Shown: positions 1,973-45,290 of the stretch, piece by piece
How positions within the stretch are numbered: the stretch's first letter is position 1
How the letters are laid out: each line of letters starts with the position of its first letter
NCBI GenBank assembly: GCA_964016885.1
Contig: OZ024750.1
Location: 49,476,001 to 49,540,000, forward strand
Length of the DNA stretch: 64,000 bases
Direction: 5' to 3'
Source: Eledone cirrhosa
Lineage: Eukaryota
Notes under the pieces: generated by a model
Databases searched by the model: none
Told to the model about the DNA's origin: nothing
What the model saw: the letters and a program-made list of their open reading frames with translations, nothing else
Translations under genes and position numbers: made by a program

Positions 1973-2185
1973 GAATGCCATGGTTGACGGAGGCTCGGCT
2001 CTGTAAGGTATAGTAATTTTTAACCGTTAAAACAATTGTAAATTGTTTAAAACTTGAACCAAATTGTTGATAAAGACACCCTCCTCCTCGTGAGAGGGGT
2101 CTTTCTGTCCGTTATTTGGCCCTTCGGGGTTAAATAGCCAGTTATTGGGGTTTTGTACCCAAAATTTCATTTTAAACAAAAAAAC

Positions 2186-4289
2186 ATGGCTACCAAAAAA
2201 AAAAAAAAAATTTCATACGTCACTCCCACTCATTCCGTCTTCTTCTTCCTCAATCATCACTACAGGAGAGAGAAGATTGTCTCTCTCCCTCCCTTCTTTA
2301 AATGTGTCTCTCTCCCTACCTTCTCTTTCGCAAGCGACGAAAGAAAAGAAAAGTCTCGTGCAAAGCGTGCAAGGTTTCTCCACGACGACGACGACAGCGA
2401 CGAAACAGGTGTGCGGGAAATACGAAAACCCAGTTCATTCGTCTGACGTCAGGAATAATAGCAGTAGCAGCCGTAATAACAACAGCAACAGTGACAATGA
2501 AAACAACAGTAGCAGCCGCAACAGCATCACCAGCAGCATAAACAACAACAGCATTAGCAGCAGCAACACCAACAACAACCACAGCAACAGCGGCGGAGGC
2601 AGTAGTCGTAGTACCTGCAGCAACAACAAAAGTACCAGCAGCTCTGACGACAACAACAACAGCAGAGAAAAACCAATCTCATTTGCAGGTATTGCGAAAA
2701 ACCTGGAAACAATCCTCATAACAAATGAGGAATTAGAGGAAGCGAAGAAGATGGTGACAAAGAACGGACACCGAGCAATCTGCAAGGCAGCGAAAAATTT
2801 TTTCGAAACCCAAGAGCACTGTACGGTCACGTACCGTACAGTAAGTACAAAATCCCGTAGGGTGGAAAGAGCCACAGAGGCCCAAATACAAAAAGCCTTG
2901 GGGTCTGTGTGGCAGAGGAAAACGCACATCACCCGAGGCAAAAAATACGCCACCGTAGACGTACTTTTTGCCACACCCCAGGAGGCAAAGGCCCAATCAG
3001 TAGTGACCCTAAGGAGCGAGGAAATGGTGTTGGTGCCCTCCTACTGCGGGCAAAAAATTGTGAGGGTCAAACTGACCCACGTCCCCCCCGGAATGACCCC
3101 TTCTTGGCTGGCCGCGTCTGTCCTCGTCGGAATCGAGGACAAAACAACTGTACTGCAAGTACAGAAAAAAGTAAGAGAAGATTGGGTCGGCTCCTCCATT
3201 GAGATGCTAATCCAAACCAACCAGGAGTGCATCGAAGCTATCCCGGATGTGATAGACTTCGATAACGGCACTCAACTGCCCATAAGTGTTGAGGGCAAAC
3301 GCCCGAAATGCTTTCGCTGTGGATCGAAGACTCACCTCAGGGCCTTCTGCAACGAGAAGACCCTGAGAAAGGAGAAAACCCCCCTCCTCCCGAATCCGGT
3401 TCCACGGCTACCAGCAACAGGACAAGCGGCAACCAGGAACGATAGGTCCGTGGCACCCATACCCACTCCACGGAAATCAAAGACAGCAGCAGCAGTGGAA
3501 ATATTAACAACAACAACAGCAATACCAAATGCAGCTGCAACAGAGACTCCAGTGCAAACATCACCAACAACAACAAGTGAAAGAGTGGAGCTGGTACCCC
3601 TCCCCGACCTTACAGAATCAGACATGGAGTGTGAGGTGGGAGAGGGATGGCAAAAGGTCTCAAGAAGGCACAAACGCAGAAGCAGCGCATCGTCGCCTTT
3701 GAAAAGGGAGGAAAGAAATGAGAAAAGGGTAAAGTCTACTGCAAAGAGACCCACAGCAGCAACACCACCAACACCATCACCACCCACACCAGCACCACCA
3801 TCACCACCGGCGACAACCCCACCGCCAACAACACCTTCAACACCACCACCACAAGCACCAACATCGCAAACACAACAACAAAACACACACACCCAGCAAC
3901 AACGACAAGAAAATAGCAGAACCACACCCCACCCCCAGAAAAACAAATGCACGGCAATAAACACACACAACAAGAAACTAATGACTTACATAATTGAACA
4001 CACAGACATTTCACAACAGGACTACATAATACCAGCACCAATCAAAACGCCAACTAACATAAGACTGCTAAAAATAGCACAGAAACAATACACAAACATT
4101 AAAACGAAATTCCCCAACGCAGTTGGTGATTTCAGGGACCTAGGAGGAACCATTAATCGAAGAGTATATTCAGACATTCTCTTAGAAGAGCCGACGACCA
4201 GCCGAAGGGACGATTCAACGGTCCCTTCACCAGACGATCAAGTGAAAAGGGATGTAAAAACCATCCCTCCTCTACCAAAAATACGGTAA
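2186..4289 (+). CDS. LINE ORF1 (gag-like nucleic-acid-binding protein)
   Basis: Zinc knuckle CFRCGSKTHLRAFC plus S/N- and P/T-rich tracts. The likely start is ATG 2186 (aaacATGg), which reaches the long ORF only if the A16 run at 2195-2210 is A15. Confidence 0.85.
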
Positions 4290-4324
4290 GTGGTCTTTCC
4301 CATCTTTTCCACTCTATTTTAAAC

Positions 4325-7300
4325 ATGACCTCACTCAGAATAGGCAGCATAAATGCGCGTGGCTTGGGGTCGTCATGGAAGCAGGGTCACCTGCTCAACG
4401 ACCTCAGGTCACTAAACATAGATGTAGTGGCCATCAGCGAGACCAGAATCTCCGAAGCACGGGCCTTCGCACCGATCTTCGGCGGCTACGATGTGTACGC
4501 ATCTCCCAGCCGTCCTGGATCGGGTGGAGGAGTTGCTGTGCTTTTTCGGAGAGGTTTGGATCTCGCCATACGGGCCATCTTCCTGGACCCAGAGGGTAAG
4601 CTGGTGGTGCTGGACGTGACCAGCGGAGACGGGCAAGCTTTCAGGCTAGTGGCCGTCTATGCCCCGACAGGAGCAGGGCGGCCTGATTTCTTCCGGCGTC
4701 TGGAGACCTTTCTTGGAACGTCGCGCTCTTTAGTGTTAGTGGGCGACTGGAACGGGATCTTAGATGCACGCTGGGACTGTGTGGGATTAGCGGATAGGGG
4801 TGGAGGGTGCAAGAGCCTCACCAACCTGCTCAGGCGTTTTGAACTGTCTGACAGGTACCGATTGGATTTCCCGAATGTGCCAATGTGGACTTGGACAAAC
4901 CGCATAGGGTCATCCAGATCATATCTAGATAGAGTATTTTGTAGGGAAATAGATAGGTCTAGCATAGGCTGTCCACAATTCAAGATAGTCAGCTACACGG
5001 ACCACAAATTCGTGATCTGTGTGCTTGACTTAGATAGGCTTCATAGACGAGGACCCGGCTACTGGAAGCTAAACGCGTCCTTACCAGCGCGCAAGGCCTA
5101 CAGAGACCGGATTAGCGAACTAGTTAAGCGGGCGTTGACGGGGGCCATCGTCAACAACAAGTGGTGGTTTGCTCTGAAAAGAGCGATTAGAATAGAATCG
5201 ATTAGGTTTAGTAAGGCTTTAGCAATAGAGAAAAATAGAGCAGAGGGAGAACTAGTTAGAAAATTAGACGAGGCGCTTAGCAAAGGCATTGCGACCGACG
5301 TGCTTGCGGCGAAATTGGCCCTTGACCAATTCTTCAATGCAAAGCACGAAGGCTGCGTTGTCAGAGCTAGGGTGCGTGCTCTCAGACACGAGGGGACGAA
5401 AGCCGTTCAATGGGCCCGAGTGGCGGAGGCGCGTCGTGGCAACAAAGCCACGATCCGGTCTTTGGTGGACCACGACGGGCGCATGCTACTCGATCCCGGG
5501 CAAATGTGTGAAGCTTTTCAGCGACACTTCGCTCAGCTGTTCGGGGGCAGCGGGGGGCCGGGTAGAGGGATGGACTTTAGTGTCTACCTCGACGGACTGC
5601 CGCGGCTCTCGGCCACTGAGGCGAAGTGTTGCGAAAAGCCGATAACAGCCGCTGAAGTAAGGGAGGCAATGACTGGCTGCACAAGGGGTAAATCGCCTGG
5701 TTTGGATGGTCTGCCCTATGAACTTTACGTACAGATGCCAGACTTGTTCGGAGGCCTCTTGGCGGACGTCTACTGCAACTGGCAACAGAACGGGAGAATT
5801 CCCAGTTCTGTGAGCCGAGGAGCGGTGGCACTGCTGAGAAAGGATCCGAACAAGGGGGATAACATAGACAATTTCCGGCCCATAACTCTGCTAAACACAG
5901 AGTTTAAGATTTTGGCCAAGGTGCTAGCAAAGAGGTTGGCGCTTGTCGTTGGTGGTCTGGTGGGAGAGGCGCAGACATGCGCCATTCCCGACAGATCCAT
6001 CCACGACAACCTCCACCTCATGCGATACATCGTAGAGAGGGTAGCTAGGGAACCTGGCACGGGTGGGTCCTTGATCAATTTAGATCAGTCGAAAGCTTTC
6101 GATAGGGTCGACCATCGTTACCTAGCGGCAGTCCTGAGGGCGGCTGGCTTTGGGCCCGTCTTCAGAGGCTGGATCGCTGCCATGCACAGCGACATCTGCT
6201 CTGTGGTGAGAGTGAACGGTCACCTGTCGGAACCGTTCAACATCATGCGCTCGGTCCGCCAAGGATGTCCCCTCTCGTCCCTCTTGTACGTATTGACTCT
6301 CGAGCCATTACTGCACAAACTGGAGACGTTGAGGGGAGTCCCGCGCGAACTAGGATGCGGAAGATCCGTGTCAGCATATGCGGACGATGTCACCGTAGTG
6401 GTGTCGAACGCCAAACACATCGAGGCGATCGGCACTACACTAAGAGAATACGAAGCGGTGACAGGAGCAATGATCAACCAGGAAAAGTCAGTGGGCCTGC
6501 AGCTCGGCACCTGGAGAGGCAGGTCCATGCCGTCCAACAGCGTCGTCGGGCGCTGGACGGACGGACCGGTTAAATTGCTAGGGGTCTGGTTCGGTCCGGA
6601 CCTCCAGACGGACAAAAACTGGGACGAGGTGACGAGCAGGGTGGCTTCTCTCACCCAGAAATGGGCGGAGAGGAAGCTATCCCTGAAAGGTCGAGCGGAG
6701 GTGGCTAACGCGTACATCGCGTCTGTCATCTGCTACCGCCTAACCGTCGTACCTTGTCCTAAGCCTCGCCTGACTGCGCTGGAGCGTTTGCTCTTTCGCT
6801 TTTTGTGGAAGGGACGTGCTCCGATGGTCAGGCGGTCCATCTGTTGTCAACACCCGCTACGTGGAGGGCTGGGCATGCCGTGGCTGATGATGCGCAGGCA
6901 CGCGCTCAGGCTACGACATCTCCACCTCTTCCTCGACGGTGATCAGGTGTGGTCGCCGTTTGCTAGACGCGTTTTTCCCCAGCTCGTTTCCTTGACGGAG
7001 CTGCAGTCCTGGGTCAAGCGAAGACCGAGAGGGAGCGCCTGGAGACTGGAATGTCTTCAGGCGCTCACAGCCCTCGACCAATCGGGCAATGTGATCGGTG
7101 GAAACTCCACCTCGGCGTTCTATAGAGGATTAGTGGAGGGGAAGAGCGACGACGTACTTGGGGAAACTCTAGGCGTCGACGAAAATCAACTAGCCAATCT
7201 CTTCGGAAGAACCTTCGGGCCGGGGCCTATGGACAACTTCCAGAAATCTCTGGCCTGGCAGTGCTACCGAGGAGCCTTGCCAGTTCGGGATAAACTCTAC

Positions 7301-7744
7301 AGGCATGGAGGTGCCGTCAGCCGGGCATGTCCGAGATGCGCGCAGGGCGACGAAACCGTCCTGCACGCACTCGTCCAGTGTCCGAAAATTGCTGACTTGT
7401 GGGTTTATGTCGAACACCTGCTGTCGCGTTTAGGACGGATCCAGCTATCATCTGAGTCTATCGTGAGGATTGCCCCGCCCTCCTCCTTTAGCCGGGAAGG
7501 GCAGGCAGTTTTTATCTGTCTGGTGGCCATGGCGAAAGAGATAGTATGGTGGACACGTTTGAAAGGGCTGAAGACGAGCACTTACCTCTTCGGTGATGCT
7601 CTGATTGACTTTTTCAAATTTCATTTGAAAAGGAAAATCAGAGTAGAGAAGGAAGTGCTCTCTTCCCAGCATTTTGTTGAAAGATGGGTGAGAGAAGCAA
7701 GAATGGCCCGAGTGAATGGGCCGACTCTGAGTATATATCTGTAA
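4325..7744 (+). CDS. LINE ORF2: APE endonuclease + reverse transcriptase + C-terminal zinc finger (1139 aa, uninterrupted)
   Basis: APE motifs SINARGL, SETR, VYAP, GDWN, LDR, TDH. RT motifs KSPGLDG, FRPITLLN, DQSKAFDRV, RQGCPLS, YADD. Zinc finger CPRC..ETVLHALVQC. Confidence 0.97.
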   Translation: MTSLRIGSINARGLGSSWKQGHLLNDLRSLNIDVVAISETRISEARAFAPIFGGYDVYASPSRPGSGGGVAVLFRRGLDLAIRAIFLDPEGKLVVLDVTSGDGQAFRLVAVYAPTGAGRPDFFRRLETFLGTSRSLVLVGDWNGILDARWDCVGLADRGGGCKSLTNLLRRFELSDRYRLDFPNVPMWTWTNRIGSSRSYLDRVFCREIDRSSIGCPQFKIVSYTDHKFVICVLDLDRLHRRGPGYWKLNASLPARKAYRDRISELVKRALTGAIVNNKWWFALKRAIRIESIRFSKALAIEKNRAEGELVRKLDEALSKGIATDVLAAKLALDQFFNAKHEGCVVRARVRALRHEGTKAVQWARVAEARRGNKATIRSLVDHDGRMLLDPGQMCEAFQRHFAQLFGGSGGPGRGMDFSVYLDGLPRLSATEAKCCEKPITAAEVREAMTGCTRGKSPGLDGLPYELYVQMPDLFGGLLADVYCNWQQNGRIPSSVSRGAVALLRKDPNKGDNIDNFRPITLLNTEFKILAKVLAKRLALVVGGLVGEAQTCAIPDRSIHDNLHLMRYIVERVAREPGTGGSLINLDQSKAFDRVDHRYLAAVLRAAGFGPVFRGWIAAMHSDICSVVRVNGHLSEPFNIMRSVRQGCPLSSLLYVLTLEPLLHKLETLRGVPRELGCGRSVSAYADDVTVVVSNAKHIEAIGTTLREYEAVTGAMINQEKSVGLQLGTWRGRSMPSNSVVGRWTDGPVKLLGVWFGPDLQTDKNWDEVTSRVASLTQKWAERKLSLKGRAEVANAYIASVICYRLTVVPCPKPRLTALERLLFRFLWKGRAPMVRRSICCQHPLRGGLGMPWLMMRRHALRLRHLHLFLDGDQVWSPFARRVFPQLVSLTELQSWVKRRPRGSAWRLECLQALTALDQSGNVIGGNSTSAFYRGLVEGKSDDVLGETLGVDENQLANLFGRTFGPGPMDNFQKSLAWQCYRGALPVRDKLYRHGGAVSRACPRCAQGDETVLHALVQCPKIADLWVYVEHLLSRLGRIQLSSESIVRIAPPSSFSREGQAVFICLVAMAKEIVWWTRLKGLKTSTYLFGDALIDFFKFHLKRKIRVEKEVLSSQHFVERWVREARMARVNGPTLSIYL

Positions 7745-8910: not shown

Positions 8911-8963
8911 ATATCTATAATTTATAATACACGAAGCCACATTTTACATATTTGAGTTAATTG

Positions 8964-8997
<34 letters not shown>

Positions 8998-9393
8998 GAA
9001 AGGTATAGAAAACATTGTAGCGAAAAGCCAACAGTATTCCATAATATATAAGAGACTATAGCGTCAAAATGGGAAAAATAGTTAAAGTAAGATGTGGGAA
9101 AAATAATTCAAACTCATCTCAAAGAGAATCAGGATATAGATTCATCCACAGAATTGAGTGAAATCCAGGGAAAAATCCATAGAGCCTTAACTCATGATAA
9201 AATAAAGTTTAAAATACTCATCCTTCAATTTGGAAAAACTTCAAATGCTCTGTATATTCTTAAGTACTATTTCACGAAAACTTTCAGTGGAGATGGTCAC
9301 GGTTGGAATTCGATCCTCAGCAGAGCTCAACTCGATAACCAAGATTATATATATAAGAAAAAATGTTGTGATGCGTGGTTGCACATGGATTAC

Positions 9394-9500: not shown

Positions 9501-9591
9501 ATATATATAAATATATAGTTCGGAATAACTGAAAATAAAAAAAATAAAAACAAACACAGGATTAAATTTTAAAAATATTATTAGTCTCACA

Positions 9592-9767
9592 GGGTGGTGA
9601 ATTGGCAGTATCGGTCGAGGGTCGGGCACCATGCTTCGACGCATAGAGTTACGGCCCTTGCCATTCTGAGTTCAAATCCCACCGCGGTTAACTTTGCCTT
9701 TCATCCTTACGGGGTTGATAAAATAAAGTACCAGTAATGTACTGGGTAATTGCTGGCCTTGTGCCTA
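9592..9767 (+). mobile_element. tRNA-derived SINE, 5' part, interrupted by the parvoviral insert (3' remnant at 17360-17368)
   Basis: Matches the intact copies at 40567-40750 and 51721-51908 (B-box gagttcaaatcc, 'ggggtcgataaaataaagtaccag', 'gctggccttgtgccta'). TSD attattagtctcaca at 9577-9591 and 17369-17383. Confidence 0.9.
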
Positions 9768-9899
9768 TCCGCTAAATTCTTTAGATTCCTCAACCTCCCT
9801 CCCTCCCGGTCAGGTCTCCTATCCAAAAGTTCAGTGCATAGCACAGTTAGGAGAGGGGACAGGCAAAGATATCAAATTACAAAGCAAGATTTGACAGTT

Positions 9900-10060
9900 A
9901 AGAAATGACGCAATATTAAAGCTACATCAGCAAAAAATAATGCTTGCGTTAGCAAAAGTATAAATAGAACCACGTGACAGTAATTCAATATGCTAACGTC
10001 AGCAAGAATCGAGATATAAAAACAAAGAGCGCGCAACTCAAACTGCCACAACTCAGCAGA
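9900..10060 (+). promoter_or_regulatory. Putative viral Pol II promoter (repeated in copies 2 and 3)
   Basis: TGACGCAA ATF/CEBP-like site at 9906, TATAAATA at 9959, E-box CACGTGAC at 9971, TATAAAA at 10015, all upstream of ATG 10104 and ATG 10168. Confidence 0.6.
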
Positions 10061-10103
10061 CATCTTGCAGATACGAACGCCGTTACTCCGCAAAAAGATC
10101 AAC

Positions 10104-10157
10104 ATGAATTACGAAGATTTAAAGACGAGAGATCGAGATATGATTACTTCTTTGGCG
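10104..10157 (+). CDS. NS1: Predicted NS1 exon 1 (MNYEDLKTRDRDMITSLA), copy 1
   Basis: caacATG start, ending at the consensus donor GCG|GTAAGT (GT 10158). Phase 0, in frame with the NS exon after the acceptor at 11775. Confidence 0.72.
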
Positions 10158-10167
10158 GTAAGTCAGA

Positions 10168-11736
10168 ATGCCTTTACATTTACCAGGTTATAATTATTGT
10201 GGTCCATACACAAACAATTTACAAAAACAACCTGTTAACGAATTAGATAAATGCTGTCAAATACACGACATAGAATACGGTAAAACAGAGGTAGATATAG
10301 CAGAAGCAGATAATAGATTAATACAGTGTTCTGAAAATATAGGCGGAGTAGCGGCGTTCGTAGTAGCAAACACAATCAAAGCTAAGAATTGGGTTATGCC
10401 ACCGGCGAACAAAAAAAGAAGAGTAGAAGAAGAACAATCTAAGAAAAATCAAGAAGACCTTTGCGACGCATCAGACGAAGACTTTGTATCACAAGACAGC
10501 GGAATTAATAGTCAAACAGTAGACATGGGTGATCCACATGTAGGTCCAGCTCCTGGGGGCTCAGCAGCAATGGCAAGTGGAGATCAACCACCAGACATAG
10601 GCGATAAAAATCCAATCGTTTCAAAAAAATTTTCAAGAACTTTCATACACTACATAAACTGTTCGGATAATCCTACAGATAAAGCAATATACAAAACACA
10701 TGATGATGAATACATAGAATTAACAATAAAACACAGAGCATCATACATACCATATACAGAATTAAAAGCTAGTATGACAATAGCAGAATTAGAAACATAT
10801 TTAACACCTTGCAATAATTTCAGAGTTAAATCATGTGGGTATCAAATATCAAATATAATTCCTTTAACAGACGAATTAGGAACATTACAAAATACAACTA
10901 CAACTAACACAACATTCAATACAAGACCATGGATGATACATTACGTCGATAATAAATACTGTTTATTTCCTAATCAAACATACTTAATAGGACATTTAAA
11001 CAATAATTGGACACATAACGTACCATTAACAAGGGAAGAAGGGAAACTAAATCAATGCATTACAAATAGATTAATTAGAAAAGATTGGTGGTTATGGCAA
11101 GATACTAAGGCAGCGAAACCTACAGAACAAGAAATACCAGCAGAAGAAATATTGTCTTATTTAAACACTGGTCAATTTCAATTCGTTTACGCTGGGGACA
11201 CAGCAGGATATACATGGGTAAATAGAACTCCAAGTTGGTTCAATATGATGAACTATTATGCATTTAATTCTACATACGAACCACCAACAATAAAACTAAC
11301 TAACGGGTTACCATGCGAAATAAATACTTATTCGGGGGCTAAAAAAAGTGCATGGGCACCAACGGAAAAAGGGGCATGGAGTAAATCAATGGCGGTAGAT
11401 AAATCAAATGAAGAACAAAACACTGGCAGATCACATTTAACACAGTTTCCAATAAATCCATCTAATCCACCGCCAATAGCTACTTTAGATTCTGTACCTA
11501 TTCTAGATTCTCAAAACAATCCGGCTAAAATATCATTCATGATCACAATAACTTATCATTCTGAAATAGATTTCGAATATATTTCTGGCAGTCCACAAAC
11601 CATGGGTTGGATGGCATGGGGAAAAGACAATGCAACAATACAAAATTCAGCCAAAACAAATCTATGTAAATGGCCGCAAGGTTTACGTAATTATGAAATA
11701 ACGAGAGTCGGTAAAACCCGACAAGCTCATCGTTAA
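10168..11736 (+). CDS. VP1: Parvoviral capsid protein with N-terminal PLA2 domain (522 aa, intact), copy 1
   Basis: Ca-binding loop LPGYNYCGP, catalytic NELDKCCQIHDIEY and ADNRL, NLS-like PANKKRR, Gly-rich segment near internal Met residues, T/N-rich capsid-like body. Confidence 0.9.
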   Translation: MPLHLPGYNYCGPYTNNLQKQPVNELDKCCQIHDIEYGKTEVDIAEADNRLIQCSENIGGVAAFVVANTIKAKNWVMPPANKKRRVEEEQSKKNQEDLCDASDEDFVSQDSGINSQTVDMGDPHVGPAPGGSAAMASGDQPPDIGDKNPIVSKKFSRTFIHYINCSDNPTDKAIYKTHDDEYIELTIKHRASYIPYTELKASMTIAELETYLTPCNNFRVKSCGYQISNIIPLTDELGTLQNTTTTNTTFNTRPWMIHYVDNKYCLFPNQTYLIGHLNNNWTHNVPLTREEGKLNQCITNRLIRKDWWLWQDTKAAKPTEQEIPAEEILSYLNTGQFQFVYAGDTAGYTWVNRTPSWFNMMNYYAFNSTYEPPTIKLTNGLPCEINTYSGAKKSAWAPTEKGAWSKSMAVDKSNEEQNTGRSHLTQFPINPSNPPPIATLDSVPILDSQNNPAKISFMITITYHSEIDFEYISGSPQTMGWMAWGKDNATIQNSAKTNLCKWPQGLRNYEITRVGKTRQAHR

Positions 11737-11775
11737 AGTAATATTACAACAAATCTATCCATTTTATATTTGCAG

Positions 11776-12531
11776 AAAAGAGGAATAAAAATGTACATGT
11801 GCATTTATCCTTGGATACTTGAAACGGACTTCAGTTGGGACAACGGTAGAGTTCCGATACAACACGACGAAATAACAACAAACGATTTCGACGAAAAAGA
11901 AGGGGCATACAAGAATAACTTTCTAATTAATGCAAACAGAAAAATAATAGAATTTATTCAAATCAACAAGGCAACAGTAATTTACCATCCAAAAGAATCA
12001 AAAATATGCGACAAAAAGGAATGGAATGCGTTCAACCACTTCCATATCATATGGAATTCAGAGATAAGACCAGGAGAAAACCAACGTCTCAAATACGTGA
12101 GAAGCTTGTACAAAAAGGGAACACAGTTAGCGCGATACATACCAGAGTGTCAAAGAGTAAAGTTCCCTAGCAGCATGGCCAATTACTTCTGCCAACCACC
12201 GAGATATTTACTGATAAAAGGCCTCGGTTCTATAAACTCTGAATTTGCAGAATGGTGCTCGAAAGAATACGTACCTAAATGTAGCCCAACACCTAAAACG
12301 AGTACATCAACAAGACATGCCACGGACGAACCGACATTCAAAAGCAGAAGTGGTACGACTTTAACTCTATTCAACTACCTGACGTATATATTCACATCAA
12401 AAAAATTTCGAAACGAACAGGAGATGAAAACACACTGGCTTAACCGAGCAAACAACGAAGTATTTATTTCGCATGGTAACCCGTTAGTTAGTTTTATTGT
12501 TGGTGGTTCGTATGTAGAATTAAATGCATAA
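11776..12531 (+). pseudogene. NS1: Truncated NS1 exon 2 (HUH endonuclease region only) fused to antisense capsid sequence, copy 1
   Basis: Matches copy 3 NS1 up to ..WLNRANNE (12459), then reads into inverted copy 2. No helicase domain. Confidence 0.88.
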
Positions 12532-13619
12532 TAGTTCATCATATTGAACCAACTTGGAGTTCTATTTACCCATGTATATCCTGCTGTGTCCCCAGCGTAA
12601 ACGAATTGAAATTGACCAGTGTTTAAATAAGACAATATTTCTTCTGCTGGTATTTCTTGTTCTGTAGGTTTCGCTGCCTTAGTATCTTGCCATAACCACC
12701 AATCTTTTCTAATTAATCTATTTGTAATGCATTGATTTAGTTTCCCTTCTTCCCTTGTTAATGGTACGTTATGTGTCCAATTATTGTTTAAATGTCCTAT
12801 TAAGTATGTTTGATTAGGAAATAAACAGTATTTATTATCGACGTAATGTATCATCCATGGTCTTGTATTGAATGTTGTGTTAGTTGTAGTTGTATTTTGT
12901 AATGTTCCTAATTCGTCTGTTAAAGGAATTATATTTGATATTTGATACCCACATGATTTAACTCTGAAATTATTGCAAGGTGTTAAATATGTTTCTAATT
13001 CTGCTATTGTCATACTAGCTTTTAATTCTGTATATGGTATGTATGATGCTCTGTGTTTTATTGTTAATTCTATGTATTCATCATCATGTGTTTTGTATAT
13101 TGCTTTATCTGTAGGATTATCCGAACAGTTTATGTAGTGTATGAAAGTTCTTGAAAATTTTTTTGAAACGATTGGATTTTTATCGCCTATGTCTGGTGGT
13201 TGATCTCCACTTGCCATTGCTGCTGAGCCCCCAGGAGCTGGACCTACATGTGGATCACCCATGTCTACTGTTTGACTATTAATTCCGCTGTCTTGTGATA
13301 CAAAGTCTTCGTCTGATGCGTCGCAAAGGTCTTCTTGATTTTTCTTAGATTGTTCTTCTTCTACTCTTCTTTTTTTGTTCGCCGGTGGCATAACCCAATT
13401 CTTAGCTTTGATTGTGTTTGCTACTACGAACGCCGCTACTCCGCCTATATTTTCAGAACACTGTATTAATCTATTATCTGCTTCTGCTATATCTACCTCT
13501 GTTTTACCGTATTCTATGTCGTGTATTTGACAGCATTTATCTAATTCGTTAACAGGTTGTTTTTGTAAATTGTTTGTGTATGGACCACAATAATTATAAC
13601 CTGGTAAATGTAAAGGCAT
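12375..13619 (-). pseudogene. VP1: 3'-truncated capsid ORF of inverted copy 2 (414 aa; tail derived from antisense NS1)
   Basis: Matches copy 1 VP up to ..GLPCEINT, then crosses the 12458 junction. Confidence 0.9.
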
Positions 13620-15586
13620 TCTGACTTACCGCCAAAGAAGTAATCATATCTCGATCTCTCGTCTTTAAATCTTCGTAATTCATGTTGATCTTTTTGCGGA
13701 GTAACGGCGTTCGTATCTGCAAGATGTCTGCTGAGTTGTGGCAGTTTGAGTTGCGCGCTCTTTGTTTTTATATCTCGATTCTTGCTGACGTTAGCATATT
13801 GAATTACTGTCACGTGGTTCTATTTATACTTTTGCTAACGCAAGCATTATTTTTTGCTGATGTAGCTTTAATATTGCGTCATTTCTTAACTGTCAAATCT
13901 TGCTTTGTAATTTGATATCTTTGCCTGTCCCCTCTCCTAACTGTGCTATGCACTGAACTTTTGGATAGGAGACCTGACCGGGAGGGAGGGAGGTTGAGGA
14001 ATCTAAAGAATTTAGCGGATACCTATCCGCTAAATTCTTTAGATTCCTCAACCTCCCTCCCTCCCGGTCAGGTCTCCTATCCAAAAGTTCAGTGCATAGC
14101 ACAGTTAGGAGAGGGGACAGGCAAAGATATCAAATTACAAAGCAAGATTTGACAGTTAAGAAATGACGCAATATTAAAGCTACATCAGCAAAAAATAATG
14201 CTTGCGTTAGCAAAAGTATAAATAGAACCACGTGACAGTAATTCAATATGCTAACGTCAGCAAGAATCGAGATATAAAAACAAAGAGCGCGCAACTCAAA
14301 CTGCCACAACTCAGCAGACATCTTGCAGATACGAACGCCGTTACTCCGCAAAAAGATCAACATGAATTACGAAGATTTAAAGACGAGAGATCGAGATATG
14401 ATTACTTCTTTGGCGGTAAGTCAGAATGCCTTTACATTTACCAGGTTATAATTATTGTGGTCCATACACAAACAATTTACAAAAACAACCTGTTAACGAA
14501 TTAGATAAATGCTGTCAAATACACGACATAGAATACGGTAAAACAGAGGTAGATATAGCAGAAGCAGATAATAGATTAATACAGTGTTCTGAAAATATAG
14601 GCGGAGTAGCGGCGTTCGTAGTAGCAAACACAATCAAAGCTAAGAATTGGGTTATGCCACCGGCGAACAAAAAAAGAAGAGTAGAAGAAGAACAATCTAA
14701 GAAAAATCAAGAAGACCTTTGCGACGCATCAGACGAAGACTTTGTATCACAAGACAGCGGAATTAATAGTCAAACAGTAGACATGGGTGATCCACATGTA
14801 GGTCCAGCTCCTGGGGGCTCAGCAGCAATGGCAAGTGGAGATCAACCACCAGACATAGGCGATAAAAATCCAATCGTTTCAAAAAAATTTTCAAGAACTT
14901 TCATACACTACATAAACTGTTCGGATAATCCTACAGATAAAGCAATATACAAAACACATGATGATGAATACATAGAATTACAATAAAACACAGAGCATCA
15001 TACATACCATATACAGAATTAAAAGCTAGTATGACAATAGCAGAATTAGAAACATATTTAACACCTTGCAATAATTTCAGAGTTAAATCATGTGGGTATC
15101 AAATATCAAATATAATTCCTTTAACAGACGAATTAGGAACATTACAAAATACAACTACAACTAACACAACATTCAATACAAGACCATGGATGATACATTA
15201 CGTCGATAATAAATACTGTTTATTTCCTAATCAAACATACTTAATAGGACATTTAAACAATAATTGGACACATAACGTACCATTAACAAGGGAAGAAGGG
15301 AAACTAAATCAATGCATTACAAATAGATTAATTAGAAAAGATTGGTGGTTATGGCAAGATACTAAGGCAGCGAAACCTACAGAACAAGAAATACCAGCAG
15401 AAGAAATATTGTCTTATTTAAACACTGGTCAATTTCAATTCGTTTACGCTGGGGACACAGCAGGATATACATGGGTAAATAGAACTCCAAGTTGGTTCAA
15501 TATGATGAACTATTATGCATTTAATTCTACATACGAACCACCAACAATAAAACTAACTAACGGGTTACCATGCGAAATAAATACTT
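12458..15586. repeat. Giant palindrome: ~1564-bp arms around a 2-nt CC spacer (14022-14023)
   Basis: Centre reads ..tttagcggata-CC-tatccgctaaa.. The only difference noticed between arms is the 1-bp deletion near 14980. Confidence 0.93.
14362..14415 (+). CDS. NS1: Predicted NS1 exon 1, copy 3
   Basis: Same sequence as 10104-10157. Donor GT at 14416, acceptor AG at 16031-16032. Confidence 0.72.
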
Positions 15587-15993
15587 ATTCGGGGGCTAAA
15601 AAAAGTGCATGGGCACCAACGGAAAAAGGGGCATGGAGTAAATCAATGGCGGTAGATAAATCAAATGAAGAACAAAACACTGGCAGATCACATTTAACAC
15701 AGTTTCCAATAAATCCATCTAATCCACCGCCAATAGCTACTTTAGATTCTGTACCTATTCTAGATTCTCAAAACAATCCGGCTAAAATATCATTCATGAT
15801 CACAATAACTTATCATTCTGAAATAGATTTCGAATATATTTCTGGCAGTCCACAAACCATGGGTTGGATGGCATGGGGAAAAGACAATGCAACAATACAA
15901 AATTCAGCCAAAACAAATCTATGTAAATGGCCGCAAGGTTTACGTAATTATGAAATAACGAGAGTCGGTAAAACCCGACAAGCTCATCGTTAA
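14426..15993 (+). pseudogene. VP1: Capsid ORF of copy 3, split by a 1-bp deletion at ~14980
   Basis: gaattaacaata (copies 1 and 2) versus gaattacaata (copy 3), giving ORFs of 186 and 320 aa. May be a sequencing error. Confidence 0.85.
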
Positions 15994-16032
15994 AGTAATA
16001 TTACAACAAATCTATCCATTTTATATTTGCAG

Positions 16033-17376
16033 AAAAGAGGAATAAAAATGTACATGTGCATTTATCCTTGGATACTTGAAACGGACTTCAGTTGGGACAA
16101 CGGTAGAGTTCCGATACAACACGACGAAATAACAACAAACGATTTCGACGAAAAAGAAGGGGCATACAAGAATAACTTTCTAATTAATGCAAACAGAAAA
16201 ATAATAGAATTTATTCAAATCAACAAGGCAACAGTAATTTACCATCCAAAAGAATCAAAAATATGCGACAAAAAGGAATGGAATGCGTTCAACCACTTCC
16301 ATATCATATGGAATTCAGAGATAAGACCAGGAGAAAACCAACGTCTCAAATACGTGAGAAGCTTGTACAAAAAGGGAACACAGTTAGCGCGATACATACC
16401 AGAGTGTCAAAGAGTAAAGTTCCCTAGCAGCATGGCCAATTACTTCTGCCAACCACCGAGATATTTACTGATAAAAGGCCTCGGTTCTATAAACTCTGAA
16501 TTTGCAGAATGGTGCTCGAAAGAATACGTACCTAAATGTAGCCCAACACCTAAAACGAGTACATCAACAAGACATGCCACGGACGAACCGACATTCAAAA
16601 GCAGAAGTGGTACGACTTTAACTCTATTCAACTACCTGACGTATATATTCACATCAAAAAAATTTCGAAACGAACAGGAGATGAAAACACACTGGCTTAA
16701 CCGAGCAAACAACGAAAATTTCATGCGCGCTATCAGTCATCCCATGTACGACAGCGTCATGAAGAAAGTACTCGAATGCGTGAAACTGAAAACACTGATA
16801 ATGCCATTCAAAGAGAAGTTCGAGAATATGAATTGGAAACAATTTGAAAACACCAAATTATGGATGGATACCGAAACTTCGTTGAAAATATTTAGATCAA
16901 TAATTATGACACAAGACATAGACGAAGAAGAACTTGTAAAATGTATTTGGGATTTGCTTAATAAATACAAAGCCAAAACAAACTTGCTTGTATTCACCGG
17001 CCTGCCTAACACAGGCAAATCAATGATCGCGCGTAGTATATCTAACATGTTTACGCACGTCAGTACCATTCAAGGAACGAGCAGCTTCCCTTTCCAGAAT
17101 TTAATAAATGTGGAGCTAGGTCTCATAGAAGAACCTAACTTCTCTCTTGAAACTCTACAAACTTTTAAGAAATTGGCGGAAGGGACGGATACTGAGGTAT
17201 CAGTTAAATTCCGTCAAGACCAAATAGTACACAGGACACCATTAATAATAACTTCGAATAATAAATTCGATAAAAATGCTCCTATAGAGGAAAAAATTGC
17301 TTTCATTACGCGTTACAATGAATTCAATTTCATTGCCGCATCACCTTTCAATACCAATTGTAGAAACAATTATTAG
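16033..17376 (+). CDS. NS1: NS1/Rep exon 2: HUH endonuclease + SF3 helicase; C-terminus truncated and ending in host DNA
   Basis: HUH motif NHFHIIW, candidate catalytic Tyr in ANYF, Walker A GLPNTGKS, Walker B LIEE, B' KKLAEG..VSVK, motif C LIITSN, Arg finger AFITR. The stop TAG lies inside the host TSD. Confidence 0.93.
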   Translation, partial: KRGIKMYMCIYPWILETDFSWDNGRVPIQHDEITTNDFDEKEGAYKNNFLINANRKIIEFIQINKATVIYHPKESKICDKKEWNAFNHFHIIWNSEIRPGENQRLKYVRSLYKKGTQLARYIPECQRVKFPSSMANYFCQPPRYLLIKGLGSINSEFAEWCSKEYVPKCSPTPKTSTSTRHATDEPTFKSRSGTTLTLFNYLTYIFTSKKFRNEQEMKTHWLNRANNENFMRAISHPMYDSVMKKVLECVKLKTLIMPFKEKFENMNWKQFENTKLWMDTETSLKIFRSIIMTQDIDEEELVKCIWDLLNKYKAKTNLLVFTGLPNTGKSMIARSISNMFTHVSTIQGTSSFPFQNLINVELGLIEEPNFSLETLQTFKKLAEGTDTEVSVKFRQDQIVHRTPLIITSNNKFDKNAPIEEKIAFITRYNEFNFIAASPFNTNCRNNY

Positions 17377-20300
17377 TCTCACACGCTTGGTGAGAGTATG
17401 TTATGCGACGTTTCGCGCATAAGCACTTCATCAGGAGAGTGACGGGCGGGGGGGGGGGGAGTTAGCGAGAAAAATAAAAATAAAAATAAATTGAAAATGG
17501 AACATGAAGTGGAAAAATGTTATATAAAAAAAAACAGAATATTAAAAAGTGAGAAGGATGTATGGATCTGCGAGAAAGGGCAAGGAAAAATGAAGTCTGA
17601 GCGGTGATGGCTAAAGGTGAGGTGTGTGTGTTTCTGTCTGTATATATATATACGTCTGTGTATGTGTATGCCTGCATGTAAGTGTGAGAGTCAGGGGGAG
17701 AGCGGGCGTACGCGACTGCGGCTTTTGAAAAATATGTGTGTGTGTGTATTTGTGTGTTTGTGTGTTTGTGTGGGTGTGTGTGTGTGAATTTGTTTTACTA
17801 CTACCTCTAAACAGAAATCCTTTTGCTGACAGTGTGTTCCACTTTACTATTTGGGAATCGCAAACTTCATAGTAATAAACGTTAATGATAGCCTTCATAT
17901 GATGTTTCATAACTATTCATATCACATTCTATTTAAGATTACTAGCATGGACATTTCATTGATTAGGAACTGATCATAATTTTGGTGTTATATATACCCT
18001 GTATAATTATCTTTAACTGCTGTTTAAATTCTGAATTCAGAATTCTGAAAGACTTATCTAGCCATTATATCCTAGTTTATTAAGCGCCAAATATACATGT
18101 GAAACATTGGAGATGAAATTGTCTGGCGAATATTTTCATCAAAATCACCCCAAATTTTTATTTCGTCGCACAGTCACTACAATATTGATATCAATATTCT
18201 GAGAATCTAATCCTGTATAAGACTTCCTAATCCGCATTCATTTTTAATTGAACTAGCGAATATTTTTACTTGAACAAAAATATTTAGATCTGAAAATATT
18301 TTCCTAAGATACACATATATTAGTATGCCCATGAGCCTCATTATCAACTGAAACTTGGACTTGTTTCAGGCGCATGCGAGGCGTGCTATAAATCTCGTTT
18401 CACCCTATGTGCCCTATATTTATTAGTGCTCGAGAAATCACTGAGATCCAGCAATGACGAGACCTCGGCATGTGAAGGAAAATTAAAGCTCACTTTACGA
18501 TGGGTTTGCTGTAAAATTACGACTTCATTAGGGATAGAGCATCAGAGATGGTGATCAGATGCCCCCTTCAATATACCGGTAGAAGTAATGTTCTGAGTGG
18601 AACGAAGCAACGTGAAATAAAGTGTTTCGTTCAAGGACATAATGCATTATCGGGAATCGAATTGACGACTATCAACATGCACTGCACCAAGACCACTTCC
18701 CAAATCACTTAAACACGCACCTTCATTATTCAACGGTGTTTTTGTCGACCGCAGAGTAACATGTTCGTTGGTGTTACAAAATGATATTTCGTTTATCCCC
18801 AAAAATATATATAGATTAATATTTATAGATATATGAAATACCTGAATTTGGTGACTAAATATATGTAACGACATGGGTTAAAGTGCAATGAATATTTTGT
18901 ATAATACATCATCATACAACACTAAACACTGTACATTTACTTAAGCTTAGTAATAACATGTATTTAATTGATATATTTATTTTAACAGGTTTGAGAGGAA
19001 CATAAACATGCTCAGTATGAAAATATAAGATTCATTGTGTTCATAATTATCATATACTTTTTTATAGATATAGTGAAATTTTCATTGTGTACATATACTT
19101 TAAACAATTTAGAAAAATTGGAAATTCTGAAAAATGCTGTAAACCGGAGAAAGTAAACTGCATCATATATGTGTGTTATGAAACATATAATGGTTTATAA
19201 TTTAGGCACAAGTCCAGCAGTTTGGGAGATGATAGTTAATGAATTTGAACGCAGAGTGTAATGGGCCGCAACCATGTTGTTCTACGTATGTGAATTGTTC
19301 TCTGGAGAATACCACGCCAGAAAAAAATTGGACGTGCTAGTTGCTAATTACCGTAGGTATTCTGAATAAAATTTGGGCTTTTGCAAAACAACAACAACGC
19401 ATATAAGCAGCAATTAAGGTTAGCTGAAGTCTGGGTATTTGATGCCTTATGCTAGTACTTACAATGTGACTGTCCTCCCAGTTATGCAAACCAATCGGCT
19501 AAACAAAATAATTTCAGCTTACATTTAAGTTAATGAATCCGAGTCATGATGCTTCTTACAATGACTACACTACTAATATTGCTAAGTCTGCATTTCCACT
19601 TTATAGTCACTCTCCTGTTAGTTTATAGTGTGATATATCCCTCAAAAAGCACATATTATTCTCCTAGGGCTGCTCTGCAGCAGAATTATTTGGCGATATA
19701 TTTATTGATCGCTGGAAATGTGTATACATTGGATATATTTTACACAATTTTACATAAAGCACTTATCCTTTCAGGTTCGGCAACGTGTCTCTCTTAAGGA
19801 CAGCAGAATGGTGTGGGGTGTTAAAAACGACGAAGCAAAAACAAAGTACATTGAATGTTTTCCTACCTTTATCAAAGTAATCCGACCGCTATGTATAGCA
19901 ATTCAAGCCAAAACATAGAGATTCCCTCGTGATCCTGTTTTATTATGAAGTAGGGGATAATGCTAAGACAGATGTCAGAGATTAAACCCCTCAAATGATT
20001 GATTAAGGTATATCTAATTATATACTTAAAGCGATTCACGTAAATCCCTCCTAAAGGACATTGAGTTTGGCACAACAATATACAAAATATATTCATTTTG
20101 TAAATATTCATATTCCATATATGTAACTATTTATATAAGTATAGACCAAAGAATATGATAGGGAGAACGCGAGATGTAAAATATATATATGTATTTATTT
20201 GTATTGAAATAGTAATAGAATTGTCACCGTAATATTGACTAAACAATATAGTCCAATAATGGGGCTCATAAAACTACTGAAAAGAAAAGCATCTGAAAAG

Positions 20301-20941: not shown

Positions 20942-21081
20942 ATCTCTCTCTCTCTCTCTCCCTTAATATATATATATATATATAGTAATAATAATAAATT
21001 TGAAGACTAAAATCCAAAGAGGGCTCGATAAGGATAAATATATATCAAATATATAAGAACCCTAGAGCAAATATTTATTAA

Positions 21082-23133
21082 AATAACAGATTAAAGTTTA
21101 AGCAAATAATCGCTGCATTCACCCTTATCGGGATCTTCTGAAACTAACAAAGTCAATCTGTAAACGCGGAACTCGATATTTCAAAAAAACGTTCAAACCG
21201 GAAGAAGACAGGAAGACAATACTTTGGTTCGTGGAAACGTTCGCTGGCAAAGAACGGGAAAAAAAGAATATAATACGTCATTAATAGGAGCGGTGAAAAA
21301 CAATTACGCGCAAAGACAGAACCACGTTTATGGTATAAAAGAGGTCGTAGACTAATGTTCTCTTAGGTGGTGCATAGAGACATTCTCTAGAAATGAACGA
21401 AAAAAACGAAGATAATACGTCATATGTGGAGCGTGGAGAACAATAGCACGCAAAGACAAACCCACGTAAATGGTATAGCAGAAGTCGTAGACTAAAATTC
21501 TAACTAGGAGACCGAATGAATCTCCGCTACAGAGTTAAGAACAAAGTAAATAAATACAATACAGAAGTAATAGAAATAAATAAATACATACACGCAAACA
21601 AATACGTACATACACAAGCATACGCAAAAAACGTACCATAGGTAAACAAAACCAGGCACATATAAATATGTGTGTGTATGCGGGTATACAAATAAATAAA
21701 TAATTATATAAACGTATATAAATAAATAAATATGTATATAACAAGCGCACACGCATACCTACATGTAAATACACGAATGTTCGGAGACGTAAGTCAACCA
21801 AAATATGAAGTACACATATACACACGCCCTACATACGTACGAACCTGAATACTCATACAGACAAAACACCCGTATACACATAGCCGAACCATATGTACCA
21901 GAATATATAAAAAAATTATACGCCATAACAATCAAATGTACGTACGAGAAGGTATACATACCTTCACAAAACATACGGGTAATATATGCTTACTTATGAA
22001 AAGAAGTAAAGGTATAAACAAAACATATACTTAGCTCCCACATCAAGATGTAAAATATCCACGTATAGATCGTACTATCCGTTAGGGTAAAACGTGGGGC
22101 TGTAATACAGGAAAGTTTTGTGCAATTTATGTTTACAAGCCGAAATTGCCTCAGATTTTTTGATTAAGATGTGGTCTGTGGCGTAGAGTATTTCCAGGGC
22201 CTCAGCGGCGCAGAGGTCACATGGTCTTTTATTTCCGTTATAAGATCTAGCCCTAGCTCGGATCTCCCAGTGTAACTTATATTGGGTGTGGTTGTCTTTT
22301 AGACTCCAGATATAAGCTGAAAGTGACGTCATAATCATTCTTAGAGGGTAACGAAAAGAATGGGTATGCATGTAAAACGCTGCTTGAAACTACTGGCGGT
22401 TAACCCTATGTAGGCCCTTCGGGACGTGGGTGTTAAAACCTTACGTTTGTAGACAATGTTACTAGAGAGGCATTTCTCGGATAGGGGGCAATCAACCCGA
22501 TTCCTACAATTACAGTCGGTACTAACTACAGGGTTGCACGTGTTCCTACGGCTAGGTAGTTTAGCTAAATTTGAAGCTGTCATGTTATGTGCAAGGTTAG
22601 GAATCGTAGAGTAAGACATTTTAATAGTATTTCTATTAAACATTTTAATATATTTATGTGTAGGGGGAAATGCTTCGTAATAAGGGAAATAAAGATCTTA
22701 GCTAATGGTGTGGCCACCTCCATATTATATGGTGGGTTATACCATTTACGTGGTTTTGTATTTGCGTGCTATTGTTCTCTACGCTCCAGATATGACGTAT
22801 TATCTTCGGTTTTTTCGTTCGTTGCCAGAGAACAACTCTATGCGCCACCTAAGAGAACATTAGTCTACGACCTCTTTTATACCATAAACGTGGTTCTTTT
22901 TTTGCGCGTAATTGTTTTTCACCGCTTCTATTAATGACGTATTATATTCGTTCTTTCCCGTTCTTTGCCAGCGAACGTTTCCACAAACCAAAGTATCGTC
23001 TTCCTGTCTTCCTCCGGTTGCAACATTTTTTTGAAATATCCAGTTCCGCGTTTACAGATTGACTTTGTTAGTTTCAGAAGATCCCGTTAAGGGTGAAAGC
23101 AGCGATTATTTGCTTAAACTTTAATCTGTTATT
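21082..23133 (-). mobile_element. Decayed Penelope-like element with ~395-bp terminal inverted repeats
   Basis: Frameshifted GIY-YIG region 22075-22643 (KMSYSTIPNL, CNC..CPL..CL..NIVY..YIGLT..FKQRF, CDLC). 21082-21477 is inverted relative to 22738-23133. Confidence 0.85.
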
Positions 23134-24482
23134 CTAACTATGCTGGAAAGCATGGCGTCCGATCCTCTACCGATACTGCCAATGCACCGCCATATATATA
23201 TATAATATAAAATCAAAGGATGGTTAAAAGAGTTCCATGAATTGTATTATGCGCATTTCAAAAACAATTATCATCATGGGATGATATTGGCGTTCTCATC
23301 AGATAAGATAGGGATACAGGATACGAAGCTTAAAAAACACTTGCGAGCTGTGAAGTGTTAAATCAACATATGAAAAATAAGATAATAGCGATATAAGAGA
23401 TTGGAAAAAAGGAAAGGAAGAGGGGAAAGGAAAGGTAAGGAAGGGGAAGAAAAAATATAGATAGAAGAAAACATATAATAATAAGGAAAGGATGACGGAG
23501 TAGGAGTATAAGAAGGAAGGATGAGAGAGGATGAGAACATGAGTGATAGAGAGAGATAACCTTTAATACTGAGAAACACTCACAGAGAAAAATCAAAAAA
23601 AATCCGTTGTAAGATAATACATAATTTAAAAAAAAAAAGAAATTAAAAGTTAATGAGGTTTATGAATGGTGATGCTTATGATTAAACAAAAAGGAATTAA
23701 GAATACTATTTATTTAAGGTTAATATTTTGAAGAGTTTAATAAGATGTGCGAAAAGGAATTTATTAAAATGTATTATTAAAATAAAATATATTAAGTATA
23801 TAAGGTGAATGGAGTTAAGGTTAAATGAATTATGAACTTAGAGGAATTAATTAGGGTCCAAATTTGTTTCTATATATTGTGATAAGAAAAAGTAAATAAT
23901 AGATTTAATACGAGCATGGAAGGAGAGAAGAAACAAAAAAGTTCAAGGATGAAACAATATATAACGTCAAAAAAAATATGTTTACAAAATTTCTCTAATG
24001 GTAATATTAGTATATATTAAAAATAAAAATGTGTATGGCCGACAATATACGGAAAATGCTAAAGTGAGTTATAAGATGAATTAAGAAGTAATTGAGAAGT
24101 AAAAATTGTAGATTAAAGATTAGAAATTAAAAAAAGAAGGAAATTAGGGGACCACTAACGACATAGTATGAGAGATATTGTATAATATACTGAAATAACC
24201 GCTCTGTTTAATCAGTTCCTGATTATTACTAGAATTCAATAAGAATCAAACATTCATAATTTTCAGCAAACAGGTGGAGTAGCTAGCTTTGATAAGTACC
24301 AAAAAGTACGAAACATCTATGTCAGCTTTATCTCCCCTGTTTGCTGAATATTAAAGTGAGACTGTCACTACTCTAAAACAATAGCGTAAGGTCTTCGAAA
24401 TGCTTTTAATTAAGCATACAGTGTATTGCAAAATACACTATATATACATTCATATATATATATCGCTATTTCAGAGCACCAA

Positions 24483-44316: not shown

Positions 44317-44431
44317 AATACATACATATTTACATATACATATATGTATATATATATATAAAAACAAATAACGAAACGAAATTAAATTTCGTTTCGTTTG
44401 TAACTCACTTTTGTATGACTGACGCTTAAAC

Positions 44432-45178
44432 AATTGAGTTAAAAATGTACATCCAGATATGTATACTGAAATACTAGTATGCATATGAATACACACACGT
44501 GTACATATGTAGATGTACCGAGTTTTTCACTGGTCACTTTACTGTGAGTGTCCAGCTATTCTGTATGTAAACACACAGACAAACCGGTTTTTAGAGTCAT
44601 ACTGGTTTTTGAGGAAACACCTTTCCTCTATTCTCCAGAAAGCCAGACAAGGAATATTGGACTAGTTTCGATGTTGTTACATCTCATCAGCAATATTTAC
44701 CCATCTTCCGGCCTTTCTAGAGAATCGTAAAAGCACATATCGTTATATGCTTTTTCTATGAAAATTAGTAGTGGGCAGACTAATTTGCATAGAGCGTGAG
44801 TACGTACCGCTCACGCTCTATGCAAATTAGTCTGCCCACTACTAATTTTCATAGAAAAAGCATATAACGATATGTGCTTTTACGATTCTCTAGAAAGGCC
44901 GGAAGATGGGTAAATATTGCTGATGAGATGTAACAACATCGAAACTAGTCCAATATTCCTTGTCTGGCTTTCTGGAGAATAGAGGAAAGGTGTTTCCTCA
45001 AAAACCAGTATGACTCTAAAAACCGGTTTGTCTGTGTGTTTACATACAGAATAGCTGGACACTCACAGTAAAGTGACCAGTGAAAAACTCGGTACATCTA
45101 CATATGTACACGTGTGTGTATTCATATGCATACTAGTATTTCAGTATACATATGTGGATGTACATTTTTAACTCAATT
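44432..45178. repeat. Near-perfect palindrome, ~369-bp arms with a 9-nt spacer
   Basis: 44432-44800 is the reverse complement of 44810-45178. The ORF track gives an identical 60-aa ORF on each strand. Confidence 0.95.
44913..44957 (+). ncRNA. Type I hammerhead ribozyme (mirror copy on the - strand at 44653-44697)
   Basis: aatattg-CTGATGA-gatgt/acatc-GAAA-ctag-TC-caatatt. Confidence 0.82.
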
Positions 45179-45290
45179 ATATATATATACATATATATAT
45201 ATATACATATACATACATATTTACATATACATATATGTATATATATATACATATACATATATATATACATATACATACATATACACACAC

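Follow-up and report, generated by a model that had tools for sequence, protein, structure and literature searches.

The viral insertion and its surroundings

The stretch of DNA analysed here, referred to as the window, comprises 64,000 nucleotides of the Eledone cirrhosa genome, and self-comparison of this window reveals three pieces of one parvovirus-like sequence that lie between host repeats. The pieces, their joints and the host sequences on either side are arranged as follows:

9577–9591, plus strand: left copy of a 15-bp target-site duplication that belongs to a host SINE, an exact repeat of 17369–17383
9592–9765, plus strand: 5' part of a host SINE-type repeat that is split by the virus, with 85–96% matches to other copies in the window
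9764–9765, plus strand: CC common to the SINE and the virus, a 2-nt microhomology as judged from other SINE ends and from the native viral arm
9764–12459, plus strand: viral copy 1, with outer hairpin arm, promoter region, VP and the cut 5' part of NS1; aligns with copy 3 over 2,696 columns with one gap
12458–12459: 2-nt microhomology at the joint of copy 1 and the inverted copy 2, found by sequence comparison
12458–14021, minus strand: viral copy 2, inverted, 1,564 nt, with VP cut; 100% complementary to 9766–11329
14020–14025: TA-CC-TA, a micro-palindrome in the middle of the secondary palindrome, its six letters all being native to one viral hairpin arm
14022–17348, plus strand: viral copy 3, with NS1 cut past the helicase and a 1-nt deletion near 14980 that interrupts the VP frame
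17349–17353, plus strand: 5-nt filler that resembles the adjacent SINE letters
17354–17374, plus strand: 3' tail of the same host SINE, matching the tails of other copies
17369–17383, plus strand: right copy of the 15-bp target-site duplication of the SINE, an exact repeat

The repeat that carries the virus is presumably a SINE, a label that is taken from its look and its duplication and not from a library match. In all 20 other SINE ends that were examined (7 of 7 within the window), the letters that come next are CC, and the initial CC of copy 1 is thus a microhomology shared by host and virus. On the other side, the viral match ends at 17348 and is followed by the filler and then by the SINE tail, which restarts with CC, and no SINE letters were lost at the insertion. 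The 15-bp repeat has also been considered as a target duplication of the virus itself, which is ruled out, as the repeat belongs to the SINE that the virus has split. Two halves of one SINE flank the virus, which argues for a true insertion, and the three-copy internal structure is less secure than the insertion itself. A search of the assembly for an empty allele gave none, as the left-flank query hit a repeat family and the right flank matched at 100% only at its own place among 40 matches. The region just left of the insertion, 8963–9350, is a member of a repeat family of which at least 39 copies, 95–97% identical, occur elsewhere in the genome.

Further elements of the window are a LINE-like element at 2094–7744, whose two long open frames are of 731 and 1,195 aa, with endonuclease, RT and zf-RVT domains in the latter, a pair of 400-nt inverted repeats (93%) around 1,260 nt at 21078–23137 that looks like a non-autonomous DNA transposon, and a reverse transcriptase fragment at 60731–61792 (PF00078, E = 8.3e-16). 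Also a near-perfect host palindrome is found at 44427–45183, which has arms of 374 nt and a spacer of 9 nt, occurs as a single copy in the window, and is either a foldback element or an artefact.

The span 13900–14145, to which a preliminary description of this DNA had drawn attention, is centred on a palindrome. Copy 2, on the minus strand up to 14021, and copy 3, on the plus strand from 14024, form an inverted repeat with CC (14022–14023) as the spacer, which confirms the claim of that description that the two copies are palindromic around CC, with arms of 1,564 bp. The inverted repeat is exact for 957 bp and continues, after a 1-nt gap, for another 607 bp. This gap is a deletion private to copy 3, and copies 1 to 3 are identical except for one gap. 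The central 46 nt of the palindrome fold with z = −11.55, a value equalled by none of 200 shuffles, and the CC-centred palindrome is far beyond chance. The arms at the CC junction are unequal, 1,564 versus 3,325 nt, and both are cut short. Copy 1 had been described as starting at the same CC (9764), and this holds in so far as the leftward match of copies 1 and 3 extends exactly 2 nt past the start of the arm, through CC at 9764–9765, and then stops, but CC is also what the host SINE has as its next letters, and the copy may start at 9764 or at 9766.

Gene content and gene order

Two genes are recognized in the viral copies:

10168–11736, plus strand: VP gene, with an N-terminal PLA2 (PF08398, E = 2.4e-13) and a parvoviral capsid fold
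16033–17348, plus strand: NS1 gene (nuclease and SF3 helicase; PF01057, E = 5e-16), the C-terminal part missing; a longer frame is present at the locus C998

The NS1 profile matches solved NS1 and Rep structures with E = 7e-12 to 7e-9, and its alignment has the motif of an HUH nuclease, with H-F-H and a conserved Tyr presumably being the residues to which the HUH motif names apply. The structure model of VP has a mean pLDDT of 69.8, and the top matches listed for it in PDB and BFVD are without exception parvoviral, with identities of at most 19%. Among solved structures, the sequence of VP matches those of 6wh3 (E = 5.2e-8) and 9nek (E = 0.0019), and its fold matches those of 9nek, 3n7x and 6wh7 at 12–18% identity. 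The best solved-structure matches are thereby the capsids of Penaeus monodon metallodensovirus, Syngnathus scovelli chapparvovirus and Penaeus stylirostris densovirus, to which the likeness is remote only, and the capsids of AAV and bocavirus score alike. A PLA2 domain in VP1 is common among parvoviruses, though not universal.

A DNA search of the same genome gave 69 matches, among them three other loci that are at least 99.8% identical, namely C998, C14 and C5, with 4, 1 and 2 substitutions relative to copy 3, respectively; 10 loci and 12 further stretches of the 69 matches were inspected, and more left ends are possible elsewhere. At C998 the order is left hairpin, VP, NS1, A-rich run and right hairpin, with 3,900 nt from tip to tip, and the right hairpin consists of a 9-nt loop on a perfect stem of 103 bp. 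VP lies before NS1 also in all six diverged copies that have both genes in one piece, and in a seventh diverged copy, L017, a truncated VP is joined to a truncated NS1, again with VP first. The earlier claim that the VP-first order is native is thus borne out by the tip-to-tip sequence of C998 and by the six diverged copies, but the support that had been sought for it in a CC apex falls away, as the order rests on these copies and not on CC.

An SF3 NS1, a jelly-roll capsid, a PLA2 and palindromic hairpins at both ends of a linear genome in the range of 4–6 kb are all as in the Parvoviridae; the gene order, which in that family is NS left and VP right, is not. Because VP precedes NS1, the sequence is called parvovirus-like and is filed in no existing genus. 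The terminal hairpins of both ends are preserved in this lineage; from metagenomic or endogenous parvoviruses, terminal hairpins are seldom obtained.

Predicted nested expression

The region upstream of VP and the transition to NS1 contain signals that suggest how the two genes may be expressed:

10013–10022, plus strand: TATA-like box of a predicted left promoter, its putative function being deduced from the sequence
10104–10157, plus strand: predicted 54-nt coding leader exon of NS1 in phase 0, with ATG at 10104 and a donor at 10158
10158–11775, plus strand: predicted intron of 1,618 nt that encloses VP
11758–11775, plus strand: predicted splice acceptor with pyrimidine tract and CAG, in frame with NS1 and in the same place in 7 of 7 copies

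Ten VP starts are available from the window and from diverged copies, the VPs being 57–78% identical in the main matched stretches. In eight of these starts, a phase-0 leader of 54 nt that encodes a similar peptide is present, together with a canonical donor 7–10 nt before the VP ATG, and the other two are without canonical GT; two of the eight (the first start of L008, and L018) resemble copies of each other. In the five copies that have both splice sites, the intron is 1,586–1,660 nt long and the whole VP gene lies inside. Leu replaces the first Met after the acceptor in four of the six diverged copies, and the preceding residues stay similar, which would fit an NS1 coding region that runs from the acceptor on. 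The second NS1 Met after the acceptor is kept in all copies, and an unspliced start is possible as well.

As a phase-0 leader with a donor stands before VP in eight of ten starts, and an in-frame acceptor stands before NS1 in seven of seven copies, the whole capsid gene is predicted to lie within an intron of NS1. One left promoter would then suffice for both genes: the unspliced RNA would give VP, and the RNA spliced over the whole VP gene would give NS1. If the capsid gene is nested in this way, an early/late switch could be made by splicing alone.

An AATAAA just past the acceptor was considered as a poly(A) signal of VP and was discarded, as it is absent from the six diverged acceptor contexts. 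In two distant NS1 relatives on long ENA contigs, P0009 and P0011, the conserved start is preceded by unusual N-terminal extensions, which would be expected if their coding region, too, began at an acceptor after another gene.

The native left hairpin and the CC junction

Four left ends belong to the near-identical loci, one at C998, two at C14 and one at C5, and all four diverge from the window at the 23rd base of the arm, where they have 41 nt in place of the window's CC, resulting in a 63-nt asymmetric interior. The perfect outer stem around this interior has 123, 43, 9 or 1 bp in the four left ends (123 at C5, 43 at C14 and 9 at C998). A similar interior of 63–64 nt is found at the diverged loci C4 and C1, with 82–84% identity across the end region. 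Altogether, ten left ends from nine other loci can be compared, and the full asymmetric interior is found in six of them, a start 3–8 nt before CC in three, a joint further in in one, and the CC palindrome in none. The three ends that begin 3–8 nt before CC (C25 twice, and C12) have the same arm as copy 1, and the break positions given for them are approximate, their own native hairpins not being in hand. Also in the sequencing runs, the main left-end contig has the asymmetric arm in three of three readable runs, all from one sample, and this contig ends in the host junction of C14.

The native arm reads TA-CC-TA exactly at the axis of the window's palindrome, and 14020–14054 matches the native arm for 35 nt. 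Folding predicts that the native tip is a 5-nt loop that ends 5 nt before CC; the position of the tip is to be taken as a prediction, because the 63-nt interior folds modestly when it is folded alone (z = −0.97 and −2.02) and its details vary between lineages. The native interior contains five micro-palindromes of the TA-CC-TA type.

The dimer bridge of MVM is described as one duplex copy of the left hairpin in which the mismatches are retained (passages of PMC1185569). By the standard of MVM, the loci C5, C14 and C998 would hold native unfolded left ends, and the window would not. At the CC junction inverted genomes are joined at their left ends, as in a native dimer bridge, but the native asymmetries are lacking and the axis does not lie at the tip.

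The three sister loci show rearrangements and junctions of their own. C998 contains a tail-to-tail junction of right ends (L002 about 720–1200; L011 6577–7526), in which the 9-nt loop on the 103-bp perfect stem is asymmetric, about 950 nt are inverted and an A-rich run is present in each arm, and which looks like a native right-end bridge. In the C14 insert (C14:8497122–8502525; L015, L016), each end is a left hairpin, an internal join is inverted and the right end is lacking, which makes it similar to a snap-back defective genome; contigs of three of three runs contain its (TA)n junction with the host. At C5 (L013 7678–8003, L014), a VP piece of 76 nt is displaced, NS1 has an internal deletion, and the outer stem of the left bridge has 123 bp. 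The left and right termini have a 19-nt C-rich block in common (window 9792–9809 and 14050–14067; L002 955–973), which is a candidate for an origin or an NS1-binding element.

Origin of the junction

The CC palindrome differs from the native left hairpin, and there is a good probability that it is a repair junction of replicative DNA that had been opened a few bases from the hairpin tip, formed by a TA-mediated fold-back or head-to-head joint and inserted into the SINE. In the hairpin-closed replicative form, the coding strand would be attached to the CC arm, as suggested by the orientation at C5, and a nick at or near the hairpin tip would therefore yield ends that start just before CC. Such ends may have been self-primed, or primed on one another, via the 2-bp TA match, which would give copies 2 and 3, and another such end may have annealed to the SINE via CC, which would give copy 1. 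The route could be either alternative end joining or template switching, before or during the insertion. It supports this explanation that the viral pieces are joined by 2-nt microhomologies, and that the sister loci are rearranged too, by the inverted join at C14 and by the internal deletion and the 76-nt piece at C5. Fold-back on microhomology at DNA breaks has been documented in yeast, where in the passages of PMC11724301 an inverted duplication is likewise primed by a short microhomology and end joining captures the other end, but the templated insertions described there are mostly of 5–34 bp, compared with 1.5 kb of viral DNA in the window.

Against a repair origin it has to be considered that priming from a stem of 2 bp and a loop of 2 nt would be very weak, and that five comparable micro-palindromes exist in the interior, so that TA-CC-TA is not special alone. 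No CC joint was found among the contigs listed for three runs, and in X1 and X3 no contig covers 17349–17377, which is a weak negative, as contigs drop rare forms. The view that the integrated molecule is a replicative form opened at the hairpin tip can be maintained in part: in three diverged insertions the viral DNA begins 3–8 nt before CC, and it is likely that inserted DNA comes from replicative forms that were opened near the left tip, but CC itself is not this tip. The repeated breaks near the left tip may thus be seen as a natural record of hairpin-ended viral DNA entering an invertebrate genome, and the CC junction would be an ordinary repair scar that is not to be read as a viral telomere.

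Originally, CC had been proposed to be the apex of the real viral telomere and the junction to be a frozen native head-to-head dimer bridge, and a perfect palindrome at a parvovirus-like left end, together with a copy 1 that begins at the same place, indeed invites this idea. It has become extremely improbable, however, as all four left ends of the same virus, two diverged left ends and the contigs of three runs have the conserved asymmetric interior instead, and as the window has one arm mirrored around an axis that lies 5 nt past the predicted loop. A modified form of the idea would be that a defective variant with a perfect CC-tipped hairpin arose first, was replicated by the rolling hairpin mechanism and was opened at its tip, the junction then being the frozen bridge of that variant. 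Such a variant would account for the starts of copy 1 and of both palindrome arms lying within 2 nt and for copies that are identical save one gap, and its perfect hairpin would be far stabler than the native interior, but the palindrome occurs in none of the ten other left ends and in no listed contig of the three runs, the common start is explained without any variant by breaks that cluster close to the native tip at three other loci, and the CC of copy 1 may be host sequence, which makes the variant an unlikely source.

Palindromes with near-zero loops are a known artefact of long reads, and fold-back long reads, or reads of free replicative viral DNA, might have turned a simpler insertion into three copies in the assembly or library. 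In line with this, the private 1-nt deletion of copy 3 is absent from the contigs of three runs, the CC joint is in none of the listed contigs, and another near-perfect palindrome exists in host DNA of the window. The arms are unequal, however, and the short arm leads, across another microhomology, into the left half of one and the same SINE, for which two separate chimeric events would be needed; moreover, the axis sits on a native micro-palindrome, and the host junction of the similarly rearranged C14 locus is present in three of three runs, and an artefact is thus considered improbable. Contig depth is 9.75–18 for the VP region, 6.6–13.8 for the NS1 region and about 6–8 for other contigs of the viral family, which leans below the copy total of the assembly, but depth is not equal to copy number. 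Finally, a single insertion could have been amplified later in the chromosome by template switching at a replication fork, and the forward-inverted-forward layout is indeed that of interstitial inverted triplications as described in passages of PMC10766183, but the fold-back axis is the left edge of the insertion and uses two native letters before CC that copy 1 lacks, and host DNA is not amplified, so that such a late triplication is very unlikely. The repair of replicative DNA opened near its tip is accordingly retained as the preferred explanation of the junction.

Relatives and age of the lineage

Searches with NS1 gave 22 relatives, and a profile search gave 29, the only names being those of Octopus vulgaris and O. 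bimaculoides proteins and of one hypothetical MAG protein. P0007 and P0009–P0011 are relatives with an identity of 32–38%. None of the 29 NS1 relatives carries a virus name, in a search that depends on shared exact words, and the only named match in the VP search is a capsid of O. vulgaris. Among viral contigs, none of 27 pattern hits was confirmed as a free-virus relative, and among metagenome contigs, 591 pattern hits led to 21 weak helicase matches (27–33% over about 60 residues), which are not useful relatives. The ESM Atlas gave generic ssDNA capsid clusters only, and no described cephalopod parvovirus was found in a literature search.

With identities of 99.8% or more, the four loci suggest that a cephalopod was infected very recently. 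The lineage has also left numerous older insertions, with 64–83% DNA identity on at least 14 contigs among the 69 genomic matches, and two loci, L010 and L020, have VP frames that are still uninterrupted over 525 and 538 codons. Sixteen sequencing runs (X5–X20, organisms B and C) contain 10–12% of the sampled words.

Taken together, the data probably represent an unnamed octopus parvovirus-like lineage in which the gene order is reversed and an NS1 intron contains the entire capsid gene, the switch between capsid and replication protein being governed by one left promoter and one splicing choice. This lineage would have invaded the genome repeatedly, most recently at the four near-identical loci, in which both hairpin ends are frozen along with a recurrent break near the left tip.

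Comparison with known parvoviruses

Parvovirus-related sequences from molluscs that fall outside the known genera were reported in 2016 (PMC5013282), and the sequences described here are similar in that they, too, would branch outside the known genera. In the main-text passages of that report, gene order, termini and octopus are not named, and its supplementary tables may list these relatives. A parvovirus with VP first or with VP in an intron was not found in a literature search, the scope of which did not extend to subscription papers and ICTV proposals. The closest parallel is a lineage like Swazi bat megaparvovirus, which according to passages of PMC13426907 also has a PLA2-bearing ORF upstream of NS1 and predicted splicing, but in which the capsid ORF still comes after NS1 and large genomes contain four ORFs.

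With the Parvoviridae in general, the lineage has in common the genome of about 4 kb, hairpin ends, an SF3 NS1, a PLA2-bearing VP and splicing, the last being predicted here (PMC11357303, in part). According to that source, NS lies left and VP right in all parvoviruses, whereas in the octopus lineage VP is the first gene, on the strand that also carries NS1, and an NS1 intron is predicted to contain it. Penaeus monodon metallodensovirus (PmMDV), the capsid of which is among the best structural matches, is described in the same passages as having no PLA2 and as having ITRs of 416 nt with T-shaped hairpins, and thus differs from the window, where VP has a PLA2. The VP and NS expression cassettes of Parvoviridae are distinct according to passages of PMC10267136, whereas the conserved splice signals of the octopus lineage predict a nested arrangement.

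In terms of the termini, the best comparison is with MVM (Protoparvovirus), which as described in passages of PMC1185569 has two different termini as well, with an imperfect left hairpin that as an unfolded duplex bridges head-to-head genomes. In MVM, the asymmetry is a small GA/GAA bubble that is retained in the bridge, whereas the junction in the window is symmetric and one arm has been lost. The promoter beside the left end also differs in its direction, as it faces NS in MVM and would face VP in the octopus lineage.
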